Assembly (NCBI GenBank): GCA_964583795.1
Contig: CAZOWX010000010.1
Location: 1-52,725, forward strand
Length of the DNA stretch: 52,725 bases
Direction: 5' to 3'
Source of the DNA: an uncultured Pseudomonadales bacterium
Lineage (GTDB): Bacteria; Patescibacteriota; Microgenomatia; UBA1400; PJMF01
Shown in pieces: positions 3,789-34,855 of the stretch. The notes below the pieces were generated by a model. That model did not search any database. It had not been told where the DNA came from and was given only the letters and a program-made list of their open reading frames with translations. The translations under genes were made by a program, and so were the position numbers. Each line of letters opens with the position of its first letter. Positions within the stretch are counted from its first letter, which is position 1.

Positions 3789-5018
3789 TTACAATGCTTC
3801 AACAGCTTTGTCGATCACTTCGTCATTTTGAGTGTTGGGATCATCAGCCACTTCGACGGTTGGAGCAATTCCTTTTCCGTGAATCCAGTCGCCATTTGGG
3901 AGCAACCAGCGACCAACAGTGACGTGAAGGCCTGCTCCACCAGAAAGTTCCATCGCATCTTGCACTGTTCCTTTTCCAAAACTATTTTCACCAAATAACT
4001 TTGCATTGCGACGATCACGCAGTGCTCCTGAAACAATTTCTGAGGCACTTGCACTCCCTTTGTTAATCAGTACTTCAATTGGAGTCTCTGTGAGTTTTCC
4101 TCGACGATTAACGGTGTATTTCTGTGTTTCTTCTCGACCTTCTTGAGAGACAACCAACCCATCCGAAATAAACTCACTCGCAATGTTCACTGCACCATCA
4201 AGATATCCGCCTGGGTTGTTTCTTAAATCTAAAATGACACCTGCTAAACCTTTTTGTTGAACAATTTCGTCGACGATCTTATTCCATTCCTGATCGGTTT
4301 GACCACCAAATCGAGAGAGGTGAATGACTGCTGCTTTTTTTCCGTTTTTTTCTGCATAAGTTACCTCAACTGAAGGAACAACGATCTCTCCACGACTGAT
4401 AGTAACTTCAAAGGTGTGATCAACTTTTTCTCTTGCCAGTGTTAGGGTAATAGGGACACCTTTTTTGCCACGAATTTTATCCACAGCATCTTCCAGGGAC
4501 ATTCCATTGGTATCAACATCAAGATCTTTGGTCTCGTCTTTTAAATGTAAAATGAGATCGCCGGCTTTGACGTCAGCACTTGCTGCAGGGGTACCTTTGA
4601 GTGGAGCTACGACAGCAAGGGTGTTGTCTTTGTAGCCGAGTTGAATTCCGATCCCATAAAATGAGCCAGCTAAATCCTCACTCGTACGCTTTTGTTCAGT
4701 AGGCGGTAAGTACATCGTGTACGGATCTCCAAGCGAGTTGGTCATTCCCTGAATTGCCCCGTACACTTGCTTTTTTGAATCGAGCTTTTGAGGATCAAGG
4801 TAGCTTTTATTTAAAATCCCCCAAACTTCCCAGAACTGAGAAAAATCGATGTTTTGATACTCTTTGGGTTGATCAGTGTGTGAAATCAGCGCACTGGGGT
4901 TGAAACCACTTGTAGTAAATACATTTTTCTTTCCAGCTTGAAAGCCAATGACTCCTCCAATTGCGATCAAAAGTATGGCGGTAATGACTTGTTTGATGAA
5001 GGTTTGTTGTGGCTGCAT
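3789..5018 (-). CDS. ctpA: S41 carboxy-terminal processing peptidase
   Basis: FYGIGIQL, PLKGTPAASADVKAGDLIL (PDZ), DLRNNPGGYL, INKGSASASEIVSGALRD. Confidence 0.9.
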   Translation of the reverse strand: MQPQQTFIKQVITAILLIAIGGVIGFQAGKKNVFTTSGFNPSALISHTDQPKEYQNIDFSQFWEVWGILNKSYLDPQKLDSKKQVYGAIQGMTNSLGDPYTMYLPPTEQKRTSEDLAGSFYGIGIQLGYKDNTLAVVAPLKGTPAASADVKAGDLILHLKDETKDLDVDTNGMSLEDAVDKIRGKKGVPITLTLAREKVDHTFEVTISRGEIVVPSVEVTYAEKNGKKAAVIHLSRFGGQTDQEWNKIVDEIVQQKGLAGVILDLRNNPGGYLDGAVNIASEFISDGLVVSQEGREETQKYTVNRRGKLTETPIEVLINKGSASASEIVSGALRDRRNAKLFGENSFGKGTVQDAMELSGGAGLHVTVGRWLLPNGDWIHGKGIAPTVEVADDPNTQNDEVIDKAVEAL

Positions 5019-5953: not shown

Positions 5954-6002
5954 GTGGTGGTGATCAGTTGTCAGTTGTGAGTTATTGGTTGCTAGGTTGA
6001 GA
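5954..6002. repeat. 7-nt-phased degenerate tract (7 units)
   Basis: gtggtgg tgatcag ttgtcag ttgtgag ttattgg ttgctag gttgaga, starting directly after the stop codon of the 5087-5953 ORF. Confidence 0.8.
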
Positions 6003-6168: not shown

Positions 6169-6203
6169 GGAAATGGATCCCGGCCTTCGCCGGGATGACG
6201 ATC
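6169..6203 (+). repeat. GC-rich palindromic hairpin repeat (GGATCCCGGC..GCCGGGATGACG type)
   Basis: ggaaatggatcccggccttcgccgggatgacgatc. Near-identical copies lie at 16006-16034 (inverted) and 16137-16165. Confidence 0.85.
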
Positions 6204-6269
6204 TCGGTGCTGAACAAGTGCGGTTTATTCTTCGAAAAACATTACCAGTAAGGCACAACACCAACAAAA

Positions 6270-7475
6270 TTAGTTTTCTTGAACTATCCATTTACGTAAC
6301 TCTTCACTGAGGCGAACCATGAATCGGACGTTGTGGATAGATGAGAGCCGAAAGTACGTGAGCTCGTCGGTTTTAAATAAGTGTCGCAAATAACTTCTTG
6401 AATAACCTTGCTGACACGTAAAGCAATTACAACCCTCTTGAATGACACCTTGATCGAAAGTAAAGCGTTGATTTCCGATTTGCAGGCGACCTTTGGGAAA
6501 CTCTGAAATGAACTGAGGCAGATTATCTTTGATTTCAAGTTGTCCACTGTATAGTGTCCCGTTGCGTGCCAGTCGCGTCGGAGCAACACAGTCAAACATG
6601 TCATATCCAGCCAAAACAGCATCGATTAAATTTTGTGGATCACGACCCAGGCCCATGGCGTAGCGCGGTTTATCTTCGGGCAAGATATCGCGAACCCAAT
6701 CCATCAGTTCAACCGTGCCTGCCATGTTGTACCCAACGGTTTCTCCGCCAAAAGCAATGCCATCGAACTCTAAACTTTTGATAACTTCGAGTGACTCACG
6801 CCGAAGCTCAGGGTGCATGGCCCCTTGAACAATGCCAAATAATGCCTGATACGAGCCATACGCACTTTGACGGTTTTGCTGCTCCCAATACGTTTTGCAT
6901 TGTTTGGCCCAACGATGCGTTCGGTCAAGTGCCTCTCTTGCGTACTTTTCATCGGCTTTGTCGGGAGTACATTCGTCAAATGCCATGATGATATCAGCTC
7001 CAATTTGGCGCTGAATTTCAATGGCTTTTTCCGGAGAGAAAAAGTGTTTTGAGCCGTCTCGGTGTGAAGTGAACTCGACACCTTCGTTAGTAATTTTGTT
7101 GTGATTAAATTGTTTGGCAGCTGGTTGTTTGTGTTGTAATTTGACTCGTTGGTTGTCGACTATTTCGCCCAAACTAAACACTTGAAATCCCCCCGAATCG
7201 GTCAGCATGGGTTTATCCCAGCCCATGAATTGGTGTACTCCACCGGCTTTTTGGATGACTTCCATTCCAGGTGTTAAATACAGATGATAGGTGTTGGCTA
7301 AGATGATTTGAGCTTTCAATTCTTCAATATCTTGAGTGTCTAGTGATTTAATAGTGGCCAGCGTGCCAACCGGCATGAAAATAGGAGTTTGCACGACGCC
7401 GTGTTCGGTCGTAAAACGACCGGCTCTGGCATGGTGTTTGGTTTTTTCAAGTTTGAAGGTAAAGGGAGTCATCAC
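6270..7475 (-). CDS. tgt: tRNA-guanine (queuine) transglycosylase
   Basis: TPIFMPVGT, LTDSGGFQVFSL, DCVAPTR and CNCFTC..YSRSYLRHL (zinc site). Carries a ~20-aa insertion relative to E. coli Tgt as I recall it. Confidence 0.95.
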   Translation of the reverse strand: MMTPFTFKLEKTKHHARAGRFTTEHGVVQTPIFMPVGTLATIKSLDTQDIEELKAQIILANTYHLYLTPGMEVIQKAGGVHQFMGWDKPMLTDSGGFQVFSLGEIVDNQRVKLQHKQPAAKQFNHNKITNEGVEFTSHRDGSKHFFSPEKAIEIQRQIGADIIMAFDECTPDKADEKYAREALDRTHRWAKQCKTYWEQQNRQSAYGSYQALFGIVQGAMHPELRRESLEVIKSLEFDGIAFGGETVGYNMAGTVELMDWVRDILPEDKPRYAMGLGRDPQNLIDAVLAGYDMFDCVAPTRLARNGTLYSGQLEIKDNLPQFISEFPKGRLQIGNQRFTFDQGVIQEGCNCFTCQQGYSRSYLRHLFKTDELTYFRLSSIHNVRFMVRLSEELRKWIVQEN

Positions 7476-7494
7476 GCTATTTTACCAGATAAGA

Positions 7495-7500
7495 TATAAT
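7495..7500 (+). promoter_or_regulatory. candidate -10 box (TATAAT) for a leaderless queA transcript
   Basis: A perfect TATAAT lies 9 nt upstream of the queA ATG in a 34-bp divergent spacer. There is no Shine-Dalgarno and no convincing -35. Confidence 0.3.
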
Positions 7501-7509
7501 ACTACTCTC

Positions 7510-8583
7510 ATGAAATTAACAGCGTTTGATTATCACCTCCCTGAAGAACAGATTGCACAGCGACCAGTCAGTCCGCGAGATCACTCAAAACTACTGGTGC
7601 TGGACCGTTTAACAGGTGAAATACAGCAACGGCATTTCTTCGACTTGCCCAAACTACTTCGTTCTAACGATGTGTTAGTACGTAATAACACCAAAGTATT
7701 ACCGGCACGGTTGTATGGGAAGAAGGAAAGTGGCGGGTTTGTGGAGTTACTGTTAGTGAAAGCGATTCAGTCCAGTCAAGCGAGTGAAGTTTGGGAGGTA
7801 TTGTCAAAACCAAGTTTGAAAGTTGGACAGCGAATCGTTTTTGAACACGGGAACTTAACCGCTGAGTGTATTGCAGTCACGGGATACACTCGTCAGATGC
7901 GGTTTTCACAAAGTCGAATTGAGCTGATGAGTAGTATCGAAGCAATTGGGAAAATGCCGATTCCTCCCTACATTCATTGGGAAGGTGAGGAGGAAAAAGT
8001 CAGAGAGGTGTATCAAACGACCTTTGCCAAAATCGTTGGCTCGGTTGCAGCGCCGACTGCAGGACTACATTTTACCAAAGAACTGGATGAGAAATTACGA
8101 GCGAAAGGAATAGCAATAGAAGAGATTACGCTGCATGTTGGATTAGGGACGTTTTTACCGGTAAAGATTGATGACGTGACGAAGCATGAGATGCATAGCG
8201 AGTGGTATGAAGTATCTGCAGAAGTTGCTAACAGACTCAACCAGTACAAAAAAGACGGCAGAAGAATCATCAGTGTTGGGACCACTACAACTCGAACACT
8301 TGAAACCTTAGTTGATCAGAACGGGACTTTACAATCGGGTATTGGTGAAACAGATATTTTTATCTATCCGCCATACCAGTTTCGATTCATCGATGCACTG
8401 ATCACTAACTTTCACTTGCCAAAATCAACTCTGCTGATGTTAGTCAGTGCTTTTGTTTCACAACCTAATACTCAACATCAATTCACCGAGTTTCAAAACA
8501 CTTTGATAGGCAAAGCATATCAAGAAGCCATCAAACAAAAATATCGATTTTTTAGCTTTGGGGATGCGATGTTGATTTGTTAA
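7510..8583 (+). CDS. queA: S-adenosylmethionine:tRNA ribosyltransferase-isomerase
   Basis: MKLTAFDYHLPEE.IAQ.P...RD.SKLLVL, VAAPTAGLHFT, GTTT.RTLE, FHLPKSTLLML. The start was moved to the ATG at 7510, because the upstream part of the ORF overlaps tgt. Confidence 0.95.
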   Translation: MKLTAFDYHLPEEQIAQRPVSPRDHSKLLVLDRLTGEIQQRHFFDLPKLLRSNDVLVRNNTKVLPARLYGKKESGGFVELLLVKAIQSSQASEVWEVLSKPSLKVGQRIVFEHGNLTAECIAVTGYTRQMRFSQSRIELMSSIEAIGKMPIPPYIHWEGEEEKVREVYQTTFAKIVGSVAAPTAGLHFTKELDEKLRAKGIAIEEITLHVGLGTFLPVKIDDVTKHEMHSEWYEVSAEVANRLNQYKKDGRRIISVGTTTTRTLETLVDQNGTLQSGIGETDIFIYPPYQFRFIDALITNFHLPKSTLLMLVSAFVSQPNTQHQFTEFQNTLIGKAYQEAIKQKYRFFSFGDAMLIC

Positions 8584-10220: not shown

Positions 10221-11048
10221 CTAGCGTGCAGCTTTTCCAGCTTTGTAGGCCTCTGCAATAGTGTGGACGATCAACTTGATACTGCGAGCAGCATCGTCAT
10301 TGGCTGGGACAACGATATCCACGTTTGAAGGATCATCGTTACTGTCCACCATTGCAATCACTGGAATTTTAGCTTGATTGGCCTCTAAAATAGCAGTTTT
10401 CTCTCGTCCGATGTCAACGACAAATAAAGCGTCAGGAGTAGTTTTTAAATCAGCTACACCACCGAAAAAGCGCTCAAGGCGAGCCACCTCTTTTTCGATT
10501 AATAACTTCTCCATTTTGGTGTAGTGTTTGTACTTACCTTCCTTGAGATCATTTTTCATTTGAGTCATTGAACGCACCGATTTCGAAACTTGTTCCCAAT
10601 TGGTCACAAAACCACCAAGCCAACGGTTAACGATGTACATAGCGCCTGCTTGAACTGCTTCTTCGCGTACAATGTCCTTTGCTTGGCGTTTTGTACCGAC
10701 AAATACGATGTTTTTTCCTGCTTTGGCAAGTTCGTACACTTTTAGAGCAGCTAGGCGAAGCTGTTTTTCGGTGATGATCAAATCAAAGATATGCACGCCA
10801 TCTTTTTTTGCATAAATGTACGGAGCCATTTTGGGGTGCCAACGCTTTGCTTGGTGGCCAAAATGACATCCAGCTTCGAGGAGTTGGTGAACGTCATATT
10901 CAGGGGAAAATGTCGTAGAAGCAACTGCTCCAGCTTTTTTTGTTGCTGGTGCTGTTTTAGTAATTTGCGCCTCCTCTTTTGGAGTCGCTTTGGTATCAGT
11001 GGCAACTGTATCTGCCATAAAAACCGCCTTTCGCCGCTCATCCGTCAT
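10221..11048 (-). CDS. rpsB: 30S ribosomal protein S2 with an ~40-aa Lys/Thr/Ala-rich N-terminal extension
   Basis: LLEAGCHFGHQ..RW.PKM..YI, FVGTKRQA, and NRWLGG..TN. The start is uncertain, either 11048 or 11018. Confidence 0.95.
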   Translation of the reverse strand: MTDERRKAVFMADTVATDTKATPKEEAQITKTAPATKKAGAVASTTFSPEYDVHQLLEAGCHFGHQAKRWHPKMAPYIYAKKDGVHIFDLIITEKQLRLAALKVYELAKAGKNIVFVGTKRQAKDIVREEAVQAGAMYIVNRWLGGFVTNWEQVSKSVRSMTQMKNDLKEGKYKHYTKMEKLLIEKEVARLERFFGGVADLKTTPDALFVVDIGREKTAILEANQAKIPVIAMVDSNDDPSNVDIVVPANDDAARSIKLIVHTIAEAYKAGKAAR

Positions 11049-11063
11049 CCCGCTAAGCGGGAC
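11043..11063 (+). repeat. small member of the CGTCATCC-hairpin family
   Basis: cgtcatcccgc taa gcgggac. The ATG of the longest rpsB ORF is the reverse complement of its GTCAT. Confidence 0.5.
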
Positions 11064-11093
11064 AAGGTGGTTGTAACCGGATGATGTGTATTT

Positions 11094-15211: not shown

Positions 15212-15820
15212 TTAATCATGTCGACTCCAAAGATTCAGGTAAAACGCCGATTGATCTTGCGGAAAGCCAATTTGATTGAGTTGTTCCTGAATAGTCGCCA
15301 GATTGTCACTATCTTTACTCCACATGTCAGCCAGTTCAAACACCGTTTCACGAACTTCATTGGGGAAAATAATCCAAGCGTTGACTTCCTTAACAAAAAA
15401 ATCGGGACGAATAGTTGAGTGGGGTTTATGAAAAAAAACGGCGGTTTTTAGCGAAGCGATGCCCCGATGGTGTAAGTACTGCATGGCTGTTTGCATGGTT
15501 TTGCCAGAATCAACCAGATCATCAAAGAGTAACACTTTTTCACTTTTGAGCGACACTGGAATACTTTGAGTAATGACTGGCATAGCGCCAGGTGTGTTAA
15601 TGTTGTTGTAAAACTCGATGTGCAGAGAACTTACATCTTCAATGTTGAGATAATCAACGAGTGATCGCGAAAAAGTAAGTCCGCCTTTAGCGAGAGCAAT
15701 GACTCGGTCAAACTTCTCTCCACTTTCAACAATTTGTCGAGCCAAGGTGTAGATATCCTGTCCTTGCTCAGCCCAAGTTTGAAATTGATAGGAGATATTT
15801 TTAATAGTAACTGAGTTCAT
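15212..15820 (-). CDS. purine-type phosphoribosyltransferase family protein
   Basis: PRPP-binding motif VLLFDDLVDSGKTM. 202 aa. Confidence 0.8.
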   Translation of the reverse strand: MNSVTIKNISYQFQTWAEQGQDIYTLARQIVESGEKFDRVIALAKGGLTFSRSLVDYLNIEDVSSLHIEFYNNINTPGAMPVITQSIPVSLKSEKVLLFDDLVDSGKTMQTAMQYLHHRGIASLKTAVFFHKPHSTIRPDFFVKEVNAWIIFPNEVRETVFELADMWSKDSDNLATIQEQLNQIGFPQDQSAFYLNLWSRHD

Positions 15821-16005
15821 ATGGTTGGTTCGTCCTCTATTTTTTCGATTGTTTCTTCAAGGATTAAATCGCGAAGTAGAAGCAGTGTATCATTCCAGTC
15901 AACTTTGTCATAGGTACTTTTTCTTTATTGATTACAAGATTTAGAGTACTTATTGATTTCTGACTAAATTATACAAGGCTTTTACACTTGTTAATCAAGA
16001 ATAGC

Positions 16006-16165
16006 TCGTCATCCCGGCGGAAGCCGGGATCCATCATTACAGTCTGGATGCATATTTATATTGTTAGACGTCAAGGTTTTAACTCATTACTTTAATCAGT
16101 TTAAATTGTTTTGATTATTGTACATAAATTTGGGAAATGGATCCCGGCTTCCGCCGGGATGACGA
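16006..16165. repeat. pair of 29-bp hairpin repeats in inverted orientation flanking 102 bp (MITE-like)
   Basis: tcgtcatcccggcggaagccgggatccat (16006-16034) is the exact reverse complement of atggatcccggcttccgccgggatgacga (16137-16165). Each arm is itself a hairpin (ATCCCGGC/GCCGGGAT). Confidence 0.85.
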
Positions 16166-16268
16166 TCGTTATTTTTACTAAAAAGTTTGCAGATACCAAT
16201 ATTGCTTATGCTACTAAAAATCTGTTGAGTAGCACGATTATTTTAATTTCTGTCACTTATTCGTGATC

Positions 16269-17972
16269 TTATTTTTTTGTATTCTCAGTCGCTTTCAAAA
16301 ACTCAATAAACATCGCGTGAGGCTTCAGTGGCCGTGATTTGTATTCTGGATGAGCTTGAGTAGCGACAAAGAATGGGTGAATCTTTTTGGGTAACTCAAT
16401 CATCTCCACGAAAAAATCATCGGGCGACGTGCCGCTAATCACAAATCCTTTTTCTTCAAGGGCATTGCGATACTCATTATTAAACTCAAATCGATGGCGA
16501 TGACGCTCAGAGATGAGATGTTTCTTGGCATCTTTATATTGATGATGTTGCTGATACATTTGATCGATTAAAGTCCCTTTTTTGAGCACGCAGTCGTAGG
16601 CCCCTAAGCGCATACTTGCTCCATCCCCTTTAATTCTTTGATAGTGCGGATCAAAGGGAATGGCGTGAATGATAGGATCGGGAGTGTTCGGATCGACTTC
16701 TTGGGTGTGAGCTTGTTTGAGTCCAACTACGTTTCGTGCAAACTCAACTGCAGCAAGTTGCAATCCGTAACATAAACCCAAATACGGCACTTTGTGTTCA
16801 CGAGCATATTGGATGGCAGTAATTTTTCCTTCTACTCCTCTGCTTCCCCACCCGATTGGACAGATGATGCCATCAACTGATCGTAAATCTTTTTTGGCTT
16901 GGGCGTCGTTTTGTTCCAATTTTTCTGCATTGATAAACACCACTTCCAGTGCGACTTCATTTGCCCAGCTGGCATGATTCAACGCTTCGATGAGTGAGTG
17001 ATACGAATCAACCAGTTCATAATCACCGGTGGAAATATACTTTGCAATGATTCCGATACGCGTGGCATGTTTTTTGTCAGAGTGAATCTTGTCGATCAAT
17101 TTTCGCCAAGGTTTAAACTCACCATTGAGTTGCTTATATTTCAAAAATAATTTTTCTAACACTAACTCATCAAATCTTTGTTGTTGAAAGATCAGTGGCA
17201 ACTCGTAAATTGAGTCCATATCAGGATTAGAGATGACATGTTCTTTATTTAAGTTACAGTAAAAGGCTACTTTTTCCTTACGCTTGTCGTCAATCATGGT
17301 TTGGGCGCGACCAACAATGAAGTCGGGTTGAATCCCCATTGAGTTGAGCATTTTGACAGAGAGTTGGGTGGGTTTGGATTTGAGTTCGTGAATGTGTTCT
17401 GGAGAGGGAAAGTAAGTGACGTGAATATGAATCACATCTTTTGGTTGGCGCAGCTTCATCATACGATAGGTTTCGTAGTAGATAGCGTTTTGGTACTCTC
17501 CGGCAGTCCCGCCAAGCTCAACCAAAATAATATCAAAGCCTTCAGCTGCAAGTTGAATACGTCGAATGACCTCTTCTGGTACATAAGGAATGGCATCAAC
17601 TGTCGCGCCATTAAAAGTAAGATTTTTTGTGTCTTCAATCACTTTTAGGTATACCTGACCCATGGTGGTAAAGTTGCGATTTCCCACGTTTTCATCCAAG
17701 AAGCGCTCATAGGAACCTAAATCAAGATCAGCCTCGAGACCATCTTCGCACAGAAACACGTCACCATGCTCAATGGGATTAATGTTACCCGAATCAAGGT
17801 TAAGATAGTTTTCGCACTTAATATTAGTAACAGAGTACCCTTGGGCTTTAAGGAGGACCCCAAGAGATGCGGCGGTAATCCCCTTGCCAAGTCCACTCAG
17901 GACTCCGCCGGAGATGAAAATGTACTTGGGGGAATTGGTTGATGCTGTGGGTTTTTTTCCATGAATGCTCAT
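16269..17972 (-). CDS. pyrG: CTP synthase
   Basis: ISGGV.SGLGKGI and the glutaminase site GLCYGLQ...EFAR, plus H.HRFEFN. Confidence 0.97.
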   Translation of the reverse strand: MSIHGKKPTASTNSPKYIFISGGVLSGLGKGITAASLGVLLKAQGYSVTNIKCENYLNLDSGNINPIEHGDVFLCEDGLEADLDLGSYERFLDENVGNRNFTTMGQVYLKVIEDTKNLTFNGATVDAIPYVPEEVIRRIQLAAEGFDIILVELGGTAGEYQNAIYYETYRMMKLRQPKDVIHIHVTYFPSPEHIHELKSKPTQLSVKMLNSMGIQPDFIVGRAQTMIDDKRKEKVAFYCNLNKEHVISNPDMDSIYELPLIFQQQRFDELVLEKLFLKYKQLNGEFKPWRKLIDKIHSDKKHATRIGIIAKYISTGDYELVDSYHSLIEALNHASWANEVALEVVFINAEKLEQNDAQAKKDLRSVDGIICPIGWGSRGVEGKITAIQYAREHKVPYLGLCYGLQLAAVEFARNVVGLKQAHTQEVDPNTPDPIIHAIPFDPHYQRIKGDGASMRLGAYDCVLKKGTLIDQMYQQHHQYKDAKKHLISERHRHRFEFNNEYRNALEEKGFVISGTSPDDFFVEMIELPKKIHPFFVATQAHPEYKSRPLKPHAMFIEFLKATENTKK

Positions 17973-22358: not shown

Positions 22359-22393
22359 GCTACAAGCTTCAAGCTACAGGCTACAAGTGACAC
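22359..22393. repeat. 7-nt-phased tract, CTACAAG type (5 units)
   Basis: gctacaa gcttcaa gctacag gctacaa gtgacac. Confidence 0.8.
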
Positions 22394-22500: not shown

Positions 22501-22526
22501 CGTCATCCTGAACTCGTTTCAGGATC
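22501..22526 (+). repeat. CGTCATCC-hairpin repeat, TGAA-stem variant
   Basis: cgtcatcctgaa ctcg tttcaggatc. The stem is ATCCTGAA/TTCAGGAT. Confidence 0.8.
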
Positions 22527-22709
22527 TATACGCAGAAAACATGAAAAGTAGTTTCTCTTCTTCTGAAGAAGAGCCGGACTATCTGGTCGACAGGAGCATC
22601 TGTTAAGAATTTTTAAAAAAATCCTCCATGATTAAGAGATGAGTTTGCCAATAGAGACAAGATTTTAATACATAACTAATTACAATCTATCCGTCAACTA
22701 TCAGTTAAA

Positions 22710-24209
22710 CTAATTTGTTAATTGTTTTTCTAAAGTTGTCTTTACACTTTGTGGATCGACTTTCTTACCGAGCTTTCTCATCACCTGACCCATCAAAAAG
22801 CCAATGATTTGCGTTTTTCCAGCTTGATAGTCAGTGACGGCTTTTGGCTGTTCTTTAATAATAGAAGCAATAATTGTTTCAAGTTCACTCGTATCGACTG
22901 TATCAACGTGGGTAAATTCTTCAAATGTTTTGAGTAACTTGTCTGGACTCTCTAGCAACTGCGTTGCAAGTTTTTTGTTGACTAATAAATTAGCAAGTTT
23001 ATTGACATCTTGTTTGTTTTGCACAAAAAGTTGAGCGATAGCTTCGAACTGTTGCGTTTGAGTTGGAGTTACCGTGAGTACTTGCGCATAGCGTTTTTCA
23101 ACTTGATACTCTTTTCCCCATCGTTCAACGATCTGATCGGGAAGCTCTGGGAGTTGACTCTTGAGTTCATCAATTTGTTTTTGAGTGAACAGTATTGGAG
23201 GTAAATCAGGGTCAGGGAAGTAACGATAGTCTTCAGCATCTTCCTTTGACCGCTGGGAGAAAGTTTCGCTTTTTTTTTCATTCCAACCACGAGTTTCCTG
23301 CGTTGGTACTTCTCCTTTTGCAAGGATTTTTGATTGACGATCAATTTCAAATGCAACTGCCTTTTCTAGAAACCCAAACGAGTTGATATTCTTTACCTCA
23401 ACTTTATACTTGGGTAAATCTTCTTCAGTGAGACGCTTGTTGCTTGTGGCTTGTAGCTTGAAGCTATCCAAGAGCGAGATATTTGCCTCCAAGCGCAGGC
23501 TTCCCTGTTCCATGTTGCAATCAGAGATGTCCAGGAATCGCAAAATTTGACGCAGTTTTTTACCATACGCTTTTGCATGTGCTGCACTGTGGATGTCCGG
23601 TTCAGTTACAATTTCTACTAGTGGGACGCCTCCTCTATTGAAGTCAACGAGACTCACTTTTTGTTCTACAATTTTTTCAGTAGGTCCTGAATATTCATGT
23701 CTCAAATTTTTTGTATTTTCTTGTGGAGTTCGACTTGACTTTTCAGGATGACGGTTTGCAGAATTAACCGAGATAGTTTGATGAATCAATTTTCCAGTAT
23801 CTTCTTCCAAGTGAATACGGCGAATACGCACCGGCCCTTCTTCTGTCTCCAGAATGCCATGTTCACAAAACGGAATATCGTACTGACTAATCTGATAGCC
23901 TTTTGGCAAATCAGGGTAGAAGTAGTTTTTTCGATCAAACTTGGAAAACAAGTTGATTGTACAGTTGAGCGCCAGTCCTAACTTAATGGTCCACTCAATA
24001 GCCTTTTTATTGGCAACTGGCAGCGCTCCAGGCATGCCAAGACACACTGGGCATGTGTAGACATTCGGTTTCGGAGCGTGGAAGGGATCATTTTTACAAC
24101 CACAAAACATTTTGGAATTAGTCTTTAGTTCGGCATGAACTTCCATACCGATTATTGGGGTATAGATAATGGATGATGGATGATGGATGGATGACTTTTT
24201 ATTTTTCAT
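22710..24209 (-). CDS. gatB: Asp/Glu-tRNA amidotransferase subunit B
   Basis: IIGMEVHAEL.T.SKMFCGC, FDRKNYFYPDLPKGYQISQ, HLEEDTGK, VDFNRGGVPLVEIVTEPD, DYRYFPDPDLPP. Its start forms an ATGA overlap with the stop of the upstream four-helix-bundle gene. Confidence 0.95.
   Translation of the reverse strand: MKNKKSSIHHPSSIIYTPIIGMEVHAELKTNSKMFCGCKNDPFHAPKPNVYTCPVCLGMPGALPVANKKAIEWTIKLGLALNCTINLFSKFDRKNYFYPDLPKGYQISQYDIPFCEHGILETEEGPVRIRRIHLEEDTGKLIHQTISVNSANRHPEKSSRTPQENTKNLRHEYSGPTEKIVEQKVSLVDFNRGGVPLVEIVTEPDIHSAAHAKAYGKKLRQILRFLDISDCNMEQGSLRLEANISLLDSFKLQATSNKRLTEEDLPKYKVEVKNINSFGFLEKAVAFEIDRQSKILAKGEVPTQETRGWNEKKSETFSQRSKEDAEDYRYFPDPDLPPILFTQKQIDELKSQLPELPDQIVERWGKEYQVEKRYAQVLTVTPTQTQQFEAIAQLFVQNKQDVNKLANLLVNKKLATQLLESPDKLLKTFEEFTHVDTVDTSELETIIASIIKEQPKAVTDYQAGKTQIIGFLMGQVMRKLGKKVDPQSVKTTLEKQLTN
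23683..23754 (-). mobile_element. 72-bp palindromic-repeat copy inserted in frame within gatB
   Basis: The termini ggtcctgaa...ttcaggatgacgg match the repeat at 34805-34855 (gatcctgaa...ttcaggatgacgac). The segment encodes RHPEKSSRTPQENTKNLRHEYSGP, 24 codons. Confidence 0.6.
24161..24195. repeat. left arm of cassette 1 (7-nt-phased tract containing a 19-bp perfect IR arm at 24162-24180)
   Basis: tatagat aatggat gatggat gatggat ggatgac. It lies within gatB codons 5-16. Confidence 0.9.
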
Positions 24210-24574
24210 TTTTTTTCTAACTTAAACTTTCTAAAAGCTCTAATTCTTTTAATAAGTATTACAATTTCATTAATCAATTCATCGTTTCGAAGCAATTGCA
24301 TTTTCTGACAGAAGTATAATTGTGACAAACATTCATATGCCGAATTAATTGCGATTTTTATATATTTGGTTTCCTCTTTAATCGATTCGCAACCACTTCC
24401 CTCAGCTATATTGCTGGAAATTGATAAACTTGATCGATTCATCTGGTCCCCAATTGATTTTTTATGTTCAATTGAAAATCGTTGGGTTAAATTAAAAATT
24501 TTAACTGCAAAATCGAGTGAGTTTTGCCAAATTTCTAATTTTTCAAAAGGTGCTCCCATCGGTCCATCATCCAT
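24206..24574 (-). CDS. four-helix-bundle protein (23S rRNA intervening-sequence protein / Avd-like family)
   Basis: FEKLEIWQNSLDFAVKIF.L...F........DQM.RSS.SISSNIAEG.G..S.KE...Y..IA..S..E. The start is more likely M6 at 24559, which leaves the IR arm outside the ORF. Confidence 0.85.
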   Translation of the reverse strand: MDDGPMGAPFEKLEIWQNSLDFAVKIFNLTQRFSIEHKKSIGDQMNRSSLSISSNIAEGSGCESIKEETKYIKIAINSAYECLSQLYFCQKMQLLRNDELINEIVILIKRIRAFRKFKLEKK

Positions 24575-32458: not shown

Positions 32459-32818
32459 TTACAGTGATCGTTTCATGGTCTTAATGCTAGATGCGAGCAT
32501 TCTTGCTAGTTCTTGAGCTTCATTTAGGAGTGGCGTAATTTTATCTTTATCAGCAAGATTTGCCTGTTCAAATAATTCTAGCCAATAAACGGTTTCGTTG
32601 GCACTTTTTAATGAAATTTCATAGTAACGAATAAATTCTTTTTTTGAACTTGAAGAAATTGCTTCATGAATATTGGCACCAATGCTAGTGCCAGAGCGAA
32701 GCAACTGATCTGATAATTTCCAGTAGATTGCTGAGTTAGGAAGTTGTTTAAAAAAAGAGATCACGTTTAGCGAAAATTGAAATGACCTCTCCTTAAGTAC
32801 ATTTTTCTTTTGATTCAT
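32459..32818 (-). CDS. four-helix-bundle protein (23S rRNA IVS protein / Avd-like family)
   Basis: ERSFQFSLNVISFFK.L.......LSDQLLRSGTSIGANI.EA.SS.SKKEFI....ISLKSANET.YWLEL. ATG at 32818; the ORF track extends to a TTG at 32833. Confidence 0.85.
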   Translation of the reverse strand: MNQKKNVLKERSFQFSLNVISFFKQLPNSAIYWKLSDQLLRSGTSIGANIHEAISSSSKKEFIRYYEISLKSANETVYWLELFEQANLADKDKITPLLNEAQELARMLASSIKTMKRSL

Positions 32819-32836
32819 TTCGTTTTTTACCAATAT

Positions 32837-34681: not shown

Positions 34682-34804
34682 AGCTATTTCTTTTGCTTAC
34701 TTTACCTGTCTGTACGCCACTCCTAAGAACGCAACAACTCAACAACATTACCTACTGAAGGCTTTACTACTATTGGATTGAGCAAAGCAAGTGGTCTGAC
34801 TTTA

Positions 34805-34855
34805 GATCCTGAATCCGTCTTGCTCGTTCCTCGCTAGACTGTTCAGGATGACGAC
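34805..34855 (+). repeat. CGTCATCC-hairpin repeat, TGAA-stem long-loop variant
   Basis: gatcctgaa-(28 nt)-ttcaggatgacgac. Confidence 0.8.

Follow-up and report, generated by a model that had tools for sequence, protein, structure and literature searches.

An in-frame palindromic repeat in gatB of a Patescibacteria genome, probably derived from CGTC-tagged REPs

Results

A palindromic repeat is inserted in frame within gatB

The gatB gene on a 52,725-nt contig (CAZOWX010000010.1, assembly GCA_964583795.1), which was analysed over its entire length and is referred to as the window in the following, contains an in-frame insertion that very probably belongs to the family of palindromic repeats found between the genes of the same contig, and that is located in a variable loop of the GatB protein. 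In all likelihood, the inserted element represents a palindrome of about 102-111 nt, which is built on a hairpin of the repetitive extragenic palindrome (REP) type with an unpaired CGTC tag. The source assembly is labelled as an uncultured Pseudomonadales bacterium; the GTDB lineage is Patescibacteriota; Microgenomatia; UBA1400; PJMF01, and the best homologues of the window GatB are found in assemblies of Patescibacteria (candidate phyla radiation, CPR).

The gatB gene (22710-24209, minus strand) is an intact open reading frame (ORF) of 499 aa with Pfam matches to GatB_N (357 bits) and GatB_Yqey, and its product retains every invariant GatB residue despite the insert. An AlphaFold2 (AF2) model, which was computed from the alignment, keeps the GatB fold with template modelling (TM) scores of 0.6-0.7 to solved GatB structures. 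When the protein was aligned with its 120 best homologues, the stretch from K140 to D189 comprised 50 residues in the window protein versus 16 in 109 of the 120, and the 50-residue form was otherwise restricted to one homologue (P0002), which is encoded on a 10-kb contig (L001) from the JGI metagenome 3300015360. According to the homologue alignments, the entire insertion covers codons S147 to Q183 (111 nt, 23661-23771, minus strand), i.e. 37 codons without a stop that replace the canonical (D/N)GK, resulting in a net gain of 34 aa. The empty site of the closest relatives reads ACT ATA GAT GGC AAA AAA GTC AGT (TIDGKKVS).

A preliminary description of this DNA had proposed a palindromic repeat of 72 bp, or 24 codons, in frame within gatB at 23683-23754. 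Its central claim is borne out by the intact reading frame and by the repeat statistics given below. The 24 core codons (R153-P176) are also correct, but they are located at 23682-23753, one base away from the proposed position, and the insertion, which indeed forms a longer loop than in the homologues, is larger than 72 bp. The length of about 10 residues that had been given for this region of B. subtilis GatB agrees with the solved structures, in which GKLVH and SLVD are separated by about 10 residues in T. maritima GatB (3AL0_B) and Aquifex GatB (3H0L_B) has about 3 residues at the insertion position.

In GatB, the HLEEDTGK motif is followed by a beta-hairpin, at the tip of which the insertion is located. 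On the AF2 model, the insert is placed between the strands 140-148 and 181-189, with predicted local distance difference test (pLDDT) values below 50 for residues 153-178. Location in a loop, as anticipated by analogy with the Rickettsia palindromic elements (RPEs), is thus what the model gives, and its low confidence is consistent with a flexible or disordered surface loop.

Architecture of the gatB element

Read along the coding strand, the insertion consists of a head of 18 nt, a CGTC-tagged palindromic core (CCGTCATCCTGAA...GAATATTCAGGACC, translated as RHPEKSSRTPQENTKNLRHEYSGP) and a tail of 21 nt. The core, all parts of which lie on the minus strand, begins with the unpaired CGTC tag of the REP (23750-23753, identified by direct reading), which is the defining tag of the superfamily discussed below, and continues with a left arm (A)TCCTGAAAAGTCAAGTCGAAC (23728-23749), an A-rich loop of 22 nt (23706-23727) and a right arm TTGAGACATGAATATTCAGGA (23685-23705), which were delimited by RNA folds. 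A core stem ATCCTGAA/TTCAGGA, 7 of whose 8 pairs are kept in the window copy (TCCTGAA/TTCAGGA), extends into arms of about 21 nt, and a CTA tail is present as on the TGAA-type units of the window. At the first stem position, the A is located opposite a C in the window and opposite an A in L001. The arms of the L001 copy (TCCTGAAAAATCAAGTCTAAC and GTTAGACCTGAATATTCAGGA) also enclose a loop of 22 nt, and this copy folds into one long hairpin with paired arms. The window copy folds similarly with poorer pairing (15 of 21 complementary arm positions versus 18 of 21 in L001, counted by hand on the predicted pairing). Since the stem continues inward on folding, we conclude that the gatB copy is a long-loop derivative of the short REPs between the window genes, which resembles transposable elements of the miniature inverted-repeat type (MITEs).

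The same repeat family occurs between the genes of the window

The window contains exactly three copies of the 12-mer TTCAGGATGACG, located at 22501 (-), 23742 (+) and 34842 (+), where shuffled sequences give an expectation of 0.17 and none of 100 shuffles reaches three. The architecture CGTCATCCTGAA-N-TTCAGGA is restricted to the same three sites and has an expectation of 0.00 in shuffles, which means that the matches are more common than composition predicts. Indeed, the termini that the preliminary description had found in common between gatB and two intergenic repeats understate the likeness, because the similarity to the copy at 34806-34853 extends past them on the left (CGTCATCCTGAA.AGTC.AG) as well as on the right (ATTCAGGAyCTA).

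These results bear on whether the loop could be an ordinary lineage-specific expansion of GatB, whose likeness to intergenic hairpins is coincidental. The loop length does vary in several CPR GatB proteins without an obvious REP signature (29 residues in P0011, 27 in P0051 and 20 in P0021, P0032, P0073 and P0103, compared to the canonical 16), and, according to a rough, uncomputed estimate, it is not very rare that any one 12-mer occurs three times when both strands (105 kb) are considered. We nevertheless consider a coincidence highly improbable in view of the expectation for the specific architecture, the likeness beyond the 12-mer at both ends, the long imperfect palindrome formed by the insert itself and the recurrence of both arms in an intergenic element of another genome (L048, see below).

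A broader census of tagged hairpins (pattern: [ACT]GTC, a stem of at least 7 bp starting with AT, a loop and the complementary stem) gave 8 matches in the 52.7-kb window versus 0.3 in shuffles, and CGTCATCC occurs 10 times versus 1.15 expected. The TGAA type is represented by a short REP (CGTC-ATCCTGAA-CTCGT-TTCAGGAT-CTA) between gatB and dnaE (22501-22528, plus strand) and by the long-loop copy between the IMS (Pol IV-like) and LemA genes (34803-34853, minus strand), which has about 30 nt between its stems. Units of the CGGC type (CGTC-ATCCCGGC-GAAG or GGAA-GCCGGGAT-CCA) are located at 6177-6200, 16007-16030 and 16141-16164. The first is a single REP downstream of tgt (6174-6200, minus strand), and the other two, both with the GGAA loop (CGTC-ATCCCGGC-GGAA-GCCGGGAT-CCA), form an inverted pair (16006-16165, strand not assigned), whose units are 102 nt apart and complementary at 29 of 29 positions, in the spacer between pyrG and a phosphoribosyltransferase (PRTase) gene. 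Finally, a shorter CGTC-tagged hairpin (CGTCATCCCGC TAA GCGGGA) is found between folD and rpsB (11043-11067, plus strand). As an observation on this last gene, the longest rpsB ORF (10221-11048) starts within the hairpin, although residue 56 is the first to be covered by its Ribosomal_S2 match; translation probably starts further downstream, and the hairpin is then probably intergenic.

The CGTC tag is also present on the window copies at 6200, 16007, 16164, 22501 and 34853, and it is retained in gatB of L001. Intergenic copies have perfect 8-bp stems (ATCCTGAA/TTCAGGAT and ATCCCGGC/GCCGGGAT), those at 6177, 16007, 16141 and 22501 have loops of 4-5 nt, and the tail is CCA on CGGC-type and CTA on TGAA-type units. 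Every intergenic copy of the window is located between genes of the same direction or convergent genes. A scan against Pfam of 40 ORFs of the window, which represents 52.7 kb of the genome, identified no transposase family, including Y1_Tnp. Rfam recognised only four tRNAs in the window, and the repeats are covered by no known RNA family.

Comparison with L122 and L123, the genomes of the GatB homologues P0003 and P0007 and syntenic relatives of the window, revealed no tagged REPs in these genomes across 42 kb of synteny; they are empty where the window has REPs. The pyrG-PRTase spacer, which measures 448 nt in the window (15820-16269) and holds the perfect inverted pair, corresponds to an empty site in both, where the two genes abut or overlap (16641-16643 in L122, 16798-16801 in L123). 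Filled versus empty sites suggest recent repeat activity in the window lineage.

Related elements are dispersed over many phyla and occur in other genes

Scanning one genome per GTDB species for CGTCATCCTGAA-N28-58-TTCAGGAYC gave at least 115 loci. Among the matches listed, the loci span many phyla and include at least a dozen metagenome-assembled genomes (MAGs) of the CPR; Falkowbacteria, Moraniibacteria, Microgenomates, Curtissbacteria, Parcubacteria, Saccharibacteria, Kazan and Peregrinibacteria are represented by MAGs. The canonical unit of 26 nt among these matches (CGTCATCCTGAACTTG(T/A)TTCAGGATC) is virtually the same across many phyla, and the loops of the long forms contain unrelated, often nested hairpins. 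Such long-loop and nested forms, which have the same ends, are frequent in other genomes.

An intergenic copy with both arms of the gatB element was found between a TatD-like gene and metG in L048 (6256-6323), a MAG (CAYOQI01; 39% GC) that is labelled Pseudomonadales. Compared to the window, its left arm differs at 3 positions and 17 nt of its right arm are identical, from which we conclude that a dispersed subfamily with these arms exists. The L048 copy (6256-6333) ends at the stop codon of the opposite-strand metG, whose final codon and stop are overlapped by the tail ACTACTAAA that this copy has in common with the L001 insert; the end of metG may have been contributed by the element.

The search for further in-frame copies, which the preliminary description had suggested, was successful in two genes. 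In a Candidatus Curtissbacteria MAG (JAUSJC010000004.1; L055 3234-3292), a REP lies in frame within a SufC-like ABC ATPase (peptide QILNQAFEAVSPQAESVQDDD), whose ABC_tran match extends over 199 residues, compared to 134 positions of the profile. In a Flavobacteriales MAG (JANWKT010000044.1; L109 1164-1189), an Lhr-type helicase contains the canonical 26-nt unit in frame (KILKQVQDDG) within its DEAD domain. The insert of the ATPase is composite, comprising about 65 residues within ABC_tran, and its flanking peptides SLRAVNRRRSNL and IASSFVTPRNDS resemble two other palindromic repeat types. Two further pattern matches, in a glycosyltransferase gene (L050) and an OsmC-like gene (L081), were rejected as chance matches, since on inspection they are translated as ordinary coding sequence and have no obvious hairpin-like interior.

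Two arrangements were observed repeatedly among the dispersed copies. First, a second tagged hairpin (e.g. TGTCCCGGACTTGATCCGGGATC) is nested within the CGTCATCCTGAA...TTCAGGATC loop at L017 3166-3229, L074 359-407 and L084 (minus-strand offsets 4138-4198), which suggests that hairpin loops are themselves insertion targets. Second, tandem left halves (CGTCATCCTGAAC plus 6-10 nt) are repeated two to four times and followed by one complete hairpin in several phyla, for instance at L010 6884-6993, L115 1320-1408, L079 (minus-strand offsets 4139-4208) and L034 2269-2330, with others alike. These tandems may be the footprint of the insertion mechanism; we know of no published explanation for them. 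Small GIY-YIG nuclease genes, one of which is located near the L003 copy, were rejected as linked to the repeats, since only 4 were found in 870 kb of REP-bearing loci. Viral contigs gave only 3 long-form matches, none with the gatB head, and hence no sign of phage carriage.

Three types of REP are found in the same GatB loop

Two other GatB homologues, both of the CPR, carry different tagged REPs in the same loop. P0008 (L120 3439-3478) has the sequence AGTC-ATTCTGAAC-CTGGCCAACGGCCAAGC-GTTTCAGAAT-CTG in the same frame and orientation as the window (peptide SHSEPGQRPSVSES), and P0050 (L119 2125-2150) has TGTC-ATTCCGGA-CTCTGA-TCCGGAAT-CTA in the opposite orientation (peptide DSGSESGMTD). Their closest relatives (e.g. 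P0009) have the canonical loop without a REP, and all three REP types start directly after the Thr-Ile codons. The GatB loop would accordingly appear to be a permissive and recurrent landing place for REPs. As the tip of the hairpin is only three residues long, selection alone could lead to the shared site, but a target preference may also be involved.

A difference close to the loop was noticed in the alignment: the window protein, P0002, P0008 and P0011, all of which have loop insertions, share NRGGVPL at residues 193-194, while the insert-free homologues P0003-P0007 have NRSSVPL. This could represent a compensatory change or a shared allele history.

The insert of the window and that of L001 may have been acquired separately

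The insert of P0002 has the same length and the same junctions as that of the window, and it is located in a syntenic gatC-gatA-nudix-gatB-dnaE locus. A homologous insertion in lineages lacking the repeat family had been put forward as an argument against a repeat origin. L001 indeed has the insert and no other REP in its 10-kb contig, but the insert keeps the REP termini, so that a REP origin is not refuted. The L001 copy also makes it barely conceivable that the insert is an assembly or binning artefact, in which a chimeric join placed a repeat in gatB. The window is a contig of metagenome type, and repeats are common sites of misassembly; however, the reading frame is intact over both junctions, and an independent assembly (JGI 3300015360) contains the same insert, at the same codon and of the same length, with a divergence of 22%.

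Between the window and L001, four-fold degenerate sites are saturated (identity 0.30, 195 of 644 sites in gatA, gatB minus the insert, dnaE and nudix), and the flanking synonymous sites are saturated up to the borders of the insert. The insert itself is 78% identical, with 17 of 18 identical positions in the head (94%), 24 of 27 in the left arm (89%; codons 153-161), 14 of 24 in the loop (58%; codons 162-169), 19 of 21 in the right arm (90%) and 13 of 21 in the tail (62%). Despite their low identity, both loops contain the 9-mer AAAATACAA. The 24 differences are distributed 10/7/7 over codon positions 1, 2 and 3 (hand count). Judged by these comparisons, the insert is neither constrained as a protein nor neutral sequence as old as the genes.

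The GatA, DnaE and NUDIX trees place the window with L122/L123 at 98-100% bootstrap each and with L001 at 0%, which is matched by the concatenated tree (window with L122/L123 at 99-100%); the tree of GatB alone is unresolved (48/15/13%). GatB of L122 and L123 has the canonical TI(D/N)GKKVS loop. As the window and L001 are non-sister, two acquisitions are favoured, and one ancient, vertically inherited event is less likely. We give roughly even chances to a separate acquisition of the element by the window and by L001, either through independent insertion of one subfamily at the same codon or through lateral transfer of the element; in this case, the shared state would result from a target preference together with few viable sites. 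Separate acquisition agrees with non-sister hosts whose nearest relatives have empty sites, with flanks that are saturated at the borders of an insert without codon structure, with the lack of the other loop REPs (P0008, P0050) in the closest relatives, with the common start of all three REP types after Thr-Ile, with a REP-rich window lineage beside REP-free L122/L123, with the repeated hits to this loop, and with the intergenic subfamily copy in L048. Common descent, however, fits better to the identical total length, the common loop 9-mer and the common 18-nt head, which is seen in no other copy. In addition, searching both arm cores in 241 million metagenome records gave only L001 and one unrelated intergenic copy, and the unresolved GatB tree leaves room for an old exchange of part of gatB.

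One ancient vertical insertion would require a reason for the conserved arms, for example nucleic-acid-level selection on an mRNA hairpin or a protein-binding site, by which the insert would now be a functional cis element. The high identity of the head and both arms compared to the four-fold sites, the equal length and junctions, and the folding of both copies, which is better than that of shuffles (z-scores of -2.3 and -1.9), are in line with this explanation, and the spread of the differences over the codon positions indicates that the constraint is not on the protein. We still regard it as unlikely. With the hosts being non-sister in the GatA, DnaE and NUDIX trees, losses that restore the canonical DGK exactly would be required. 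Moreover, the three arm substitutions of the window all disrupt pairs that L001 keeps, and none of them is compensated, so that selection for structure is not favoured. Conservation of the arms extends to the unrelated intergenic copy of L048, which makes it a property of the family and not of gatB. An RNA structure backed by covariation was considered and rejected, since two sequences provide none, the register of the predicted outer stem differs between the window and L001, and the arm changes of the window break pairs.

As to an old exchange of part of gatB, combined with constraint, no tract of window-L001 agreement was seen around the insert; sites at which these two agree versus L122/L123 do not cluster near it, except at residues 193-194. 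Taken together, the explanations that invoke constraint are still rather improbable.

Other repeats and genes in the window

Inside gatB, a heptamer array (GCTTGTA x4.4 on the plus strand, 23435-23465, residues ~249-259, peptide SFKLQATSNK) forms a second in-frame repeat, which is located in the variable loop after ANISL and is lacking in P0002 and P0003. The 14-mer AGCTTCAAGCTACA is common to this array and to the intergenic array at 22359-22387 upstream of dnaE, and its pattern has 8 matches with up to 2 mismatches versus 0.43 expected. Tandem arrays with a period of 7 nt, comprising 3-5 copies of different units, were identified with Tandem Repeats Finder (TRF) at 5964, 11094, 12295, 15065, 22359, 24165, 32399, 32850, 34928 and 39273. 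They are mostly intergenic, and several adjoin REPs; the array at 24165-24189 (GATGATG) is located in the N-terminal extension of gatB. Such arrays recall the heptameric short tandemly repeated repetitive (STRR) sequences of cyanobacteria.

Two genes of the 23S_rRNA_IVP (four-helix-bundle) family are present at 24206-24574 and 32459-32833. The first of these is located between nudix and gatB, overlapping the gatB start by 4 nt, and a member of this family occupies the corresponding position in L121, which is not the case for L001, L120, L122 or L123. The Pfam matches of tgt (6270-7475, TGT) and queA (7336-8583, Queuosine_synth) are about 45 and about 30 residues longer than the respective profiles, so that both genes may hold further lineage-specific insertions. 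As listed, the two ORFs overlap by 140 nt at their 5' ends, and at least one of the starts is probably miscalled.

Discussion

The window repeats appear to fit the published superfamily of CGTC-tagged REPs, which their short units match point by point. Di Nocera, De Gregorio and Rocco (2013, BMC Genomics 14:522; PMC3733652) distinguished two superfamilies of REPs, whose unpaired tag is either GTAG or CGTC. According to these authors, CGTC REPs combine a stem of 8-9 bp, which starts with A/T pairs, with a loop of 4-5 nt and a tail of 3 nt (consensus CCA), may also be tagged with TGTC or CCTC, often occur as inverted dimers between unidirectional or convergent genes, are intragenic in several species and have no dedicated transposase (PMC3733652). 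The short units of the window agree in the CGTC tag, the 8-bp stem starting with AT, the loop of 4-5 nt, the 3-nt tail, the multiple copies and the inverted dimers, and the window repeats as a whole agree in the location between same-direction or convergent genes, the occasional in-frame copies and the lack of a dedicated transposase. They differ in the CTA instead of CCA tail on the TGAA-type copies, and in the host phylum Patescibacteria and the gene gatB, both of which are absent from the lists of PMC3733652, where CGTC REPs are reported for Proteobacteria, Chlorobi, Bacteroidetes, Spirochaetes and Thermotogae. The searchable literature gave no report that links REPs to Patescibacteria, and a literature search with the repeat sequence itself gave primer matches only. 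From this we conclude that in-frame palindromic repeats of the CGTC class are known, and that the Patescibacteria host, gatB and the long-loop variant are new.

RPEs, which had been named as the closest precedent, were reportedly described by Ogata et al. in 2000 and 2002. With about 100-150 bp, RPE-1 is the longer element, and it is not known outside Rickettsia. As in Rickettsia, palindromic repeats lie here in frame in genes of presumably still-functional proteins in a small genome, but the host phylum is different and REPs of three types have entered one protein loop in different lineages. RPE-6 of R. conorii is a CGTC-1 REP and RPE-4 a CGTC-4 REP (PMC3733652), and this membership of the superfamily is the sole link to the window repeat. 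The analogy is therefore right, but the precedent is broader, since many species have in-frame GTAG and CGTC REPs, for example within dnaE, uvrABCD, recBCD and tRNA synthetase genes (PMC3733652).

Two further systems are alike in part. GTAG REPs, which form REPINs and are mobilised by a tyrosine HUH transposase (RAYT), are also short hairpins with an unpaired 5' tetranucleotide and inverted pairs, as at 16006-16165 of the window; they differ in the tag (GTAG instead of CGTC), and no Y1 transposase was detected when 40 window ORFs were scanned, nor is one reported for CGTC REPs in the literature. Bacterial MITEs (Correia/NEMIS, RUP, ERIC, Nezha) are likewise noncoding elements of about 100 nt with terminal inverted repeats and a long hairpin, and MITE insertions that fuse in frame with genes have been described (review PMC10969869). 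Unlike MITEs, the gatB element terminates in REP ends, one of which bears the asymmetric CGTC tag, and neither a parent insertion sequence sharing these ends nor a clear target-site duplication was found.

Several observations weigh against a mobile REP derivative in gatB. The stem has lost its first A-T pair (the window has GGAC and L001 has GGAA), and about 54 nt separate the 8-nt stems (arms of about 21 nt plus the 22-nt loop) compared to the 4-5 nt of the family loop. The 18-nt head, although nearly identical in the window and L001, has no counterpart in intergenic copies. The insert junctions lack a clear target-site duplication, a possible AT(A/T)..GT(T/A)AAT direct repeat at the two junctions being too weak for a call, and the 40 window ORFs scanned include no mobilising enzyme. 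Only three long-form copies of the subfamily were recovered, so that we infer the mobility of this variant rather than observe it. Finally, every part of the insert is more alike between the window and L001 than the saturated four-fold sites (78% versus 30%), for which pure neutrality is insufficient.

The following course of events would be compatible with our results. The family would spread as a non-autonomous element, perhaps moved in trans in the form of a single-stranded hairpin, as the analogy to RAYT and GTAG REPs would suggest. In an indispensable gene, only in-frame, stop-free insertions in a permissive loop would survive, and such a filter would explain why different REPs were collected by the same loop in other CPR lineages. 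As the gatB insert contains no stop and its length is a multiple of three, it should be read through during translation, adding about 34 hydrophilic residues to GatB, and it is presumably tolerated rather than useful. It is a more speculative and rather doubtful idea that a REP-derived element of about 100 nt homes on one gatB codon in Patescibacteria lineages, with the window, L001, P0008 and P0050 representing separate arrivals, or that the arms are kept by a nucleic-acid-level function in the gatCAB-dnaE unit. Either would explain an identity of 78% without codon pattern between non-sister lineages with saturated neutral sites.

The in-frame "decoration" of core genes by REPs is hereby extended to the Patescibacteria, and CGTC REPs whose 26-nt unit is nearly identical are found across many phyla, with at least a dozen CPR MAGs among the carriers. 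When CPR genomes are annotated or used in phylogenomics, it should be borne in mind that odd insertions in conserved proteins, such as GatB and the SufC-like ATPase, can be selfish repeat DNA and not adaptive domains. With the same codon occupied in non-sister hosts, a divergence slower than neutral and three REP types in one loop, the gatB insert provides a small, defined case on how CGTC REPs move.

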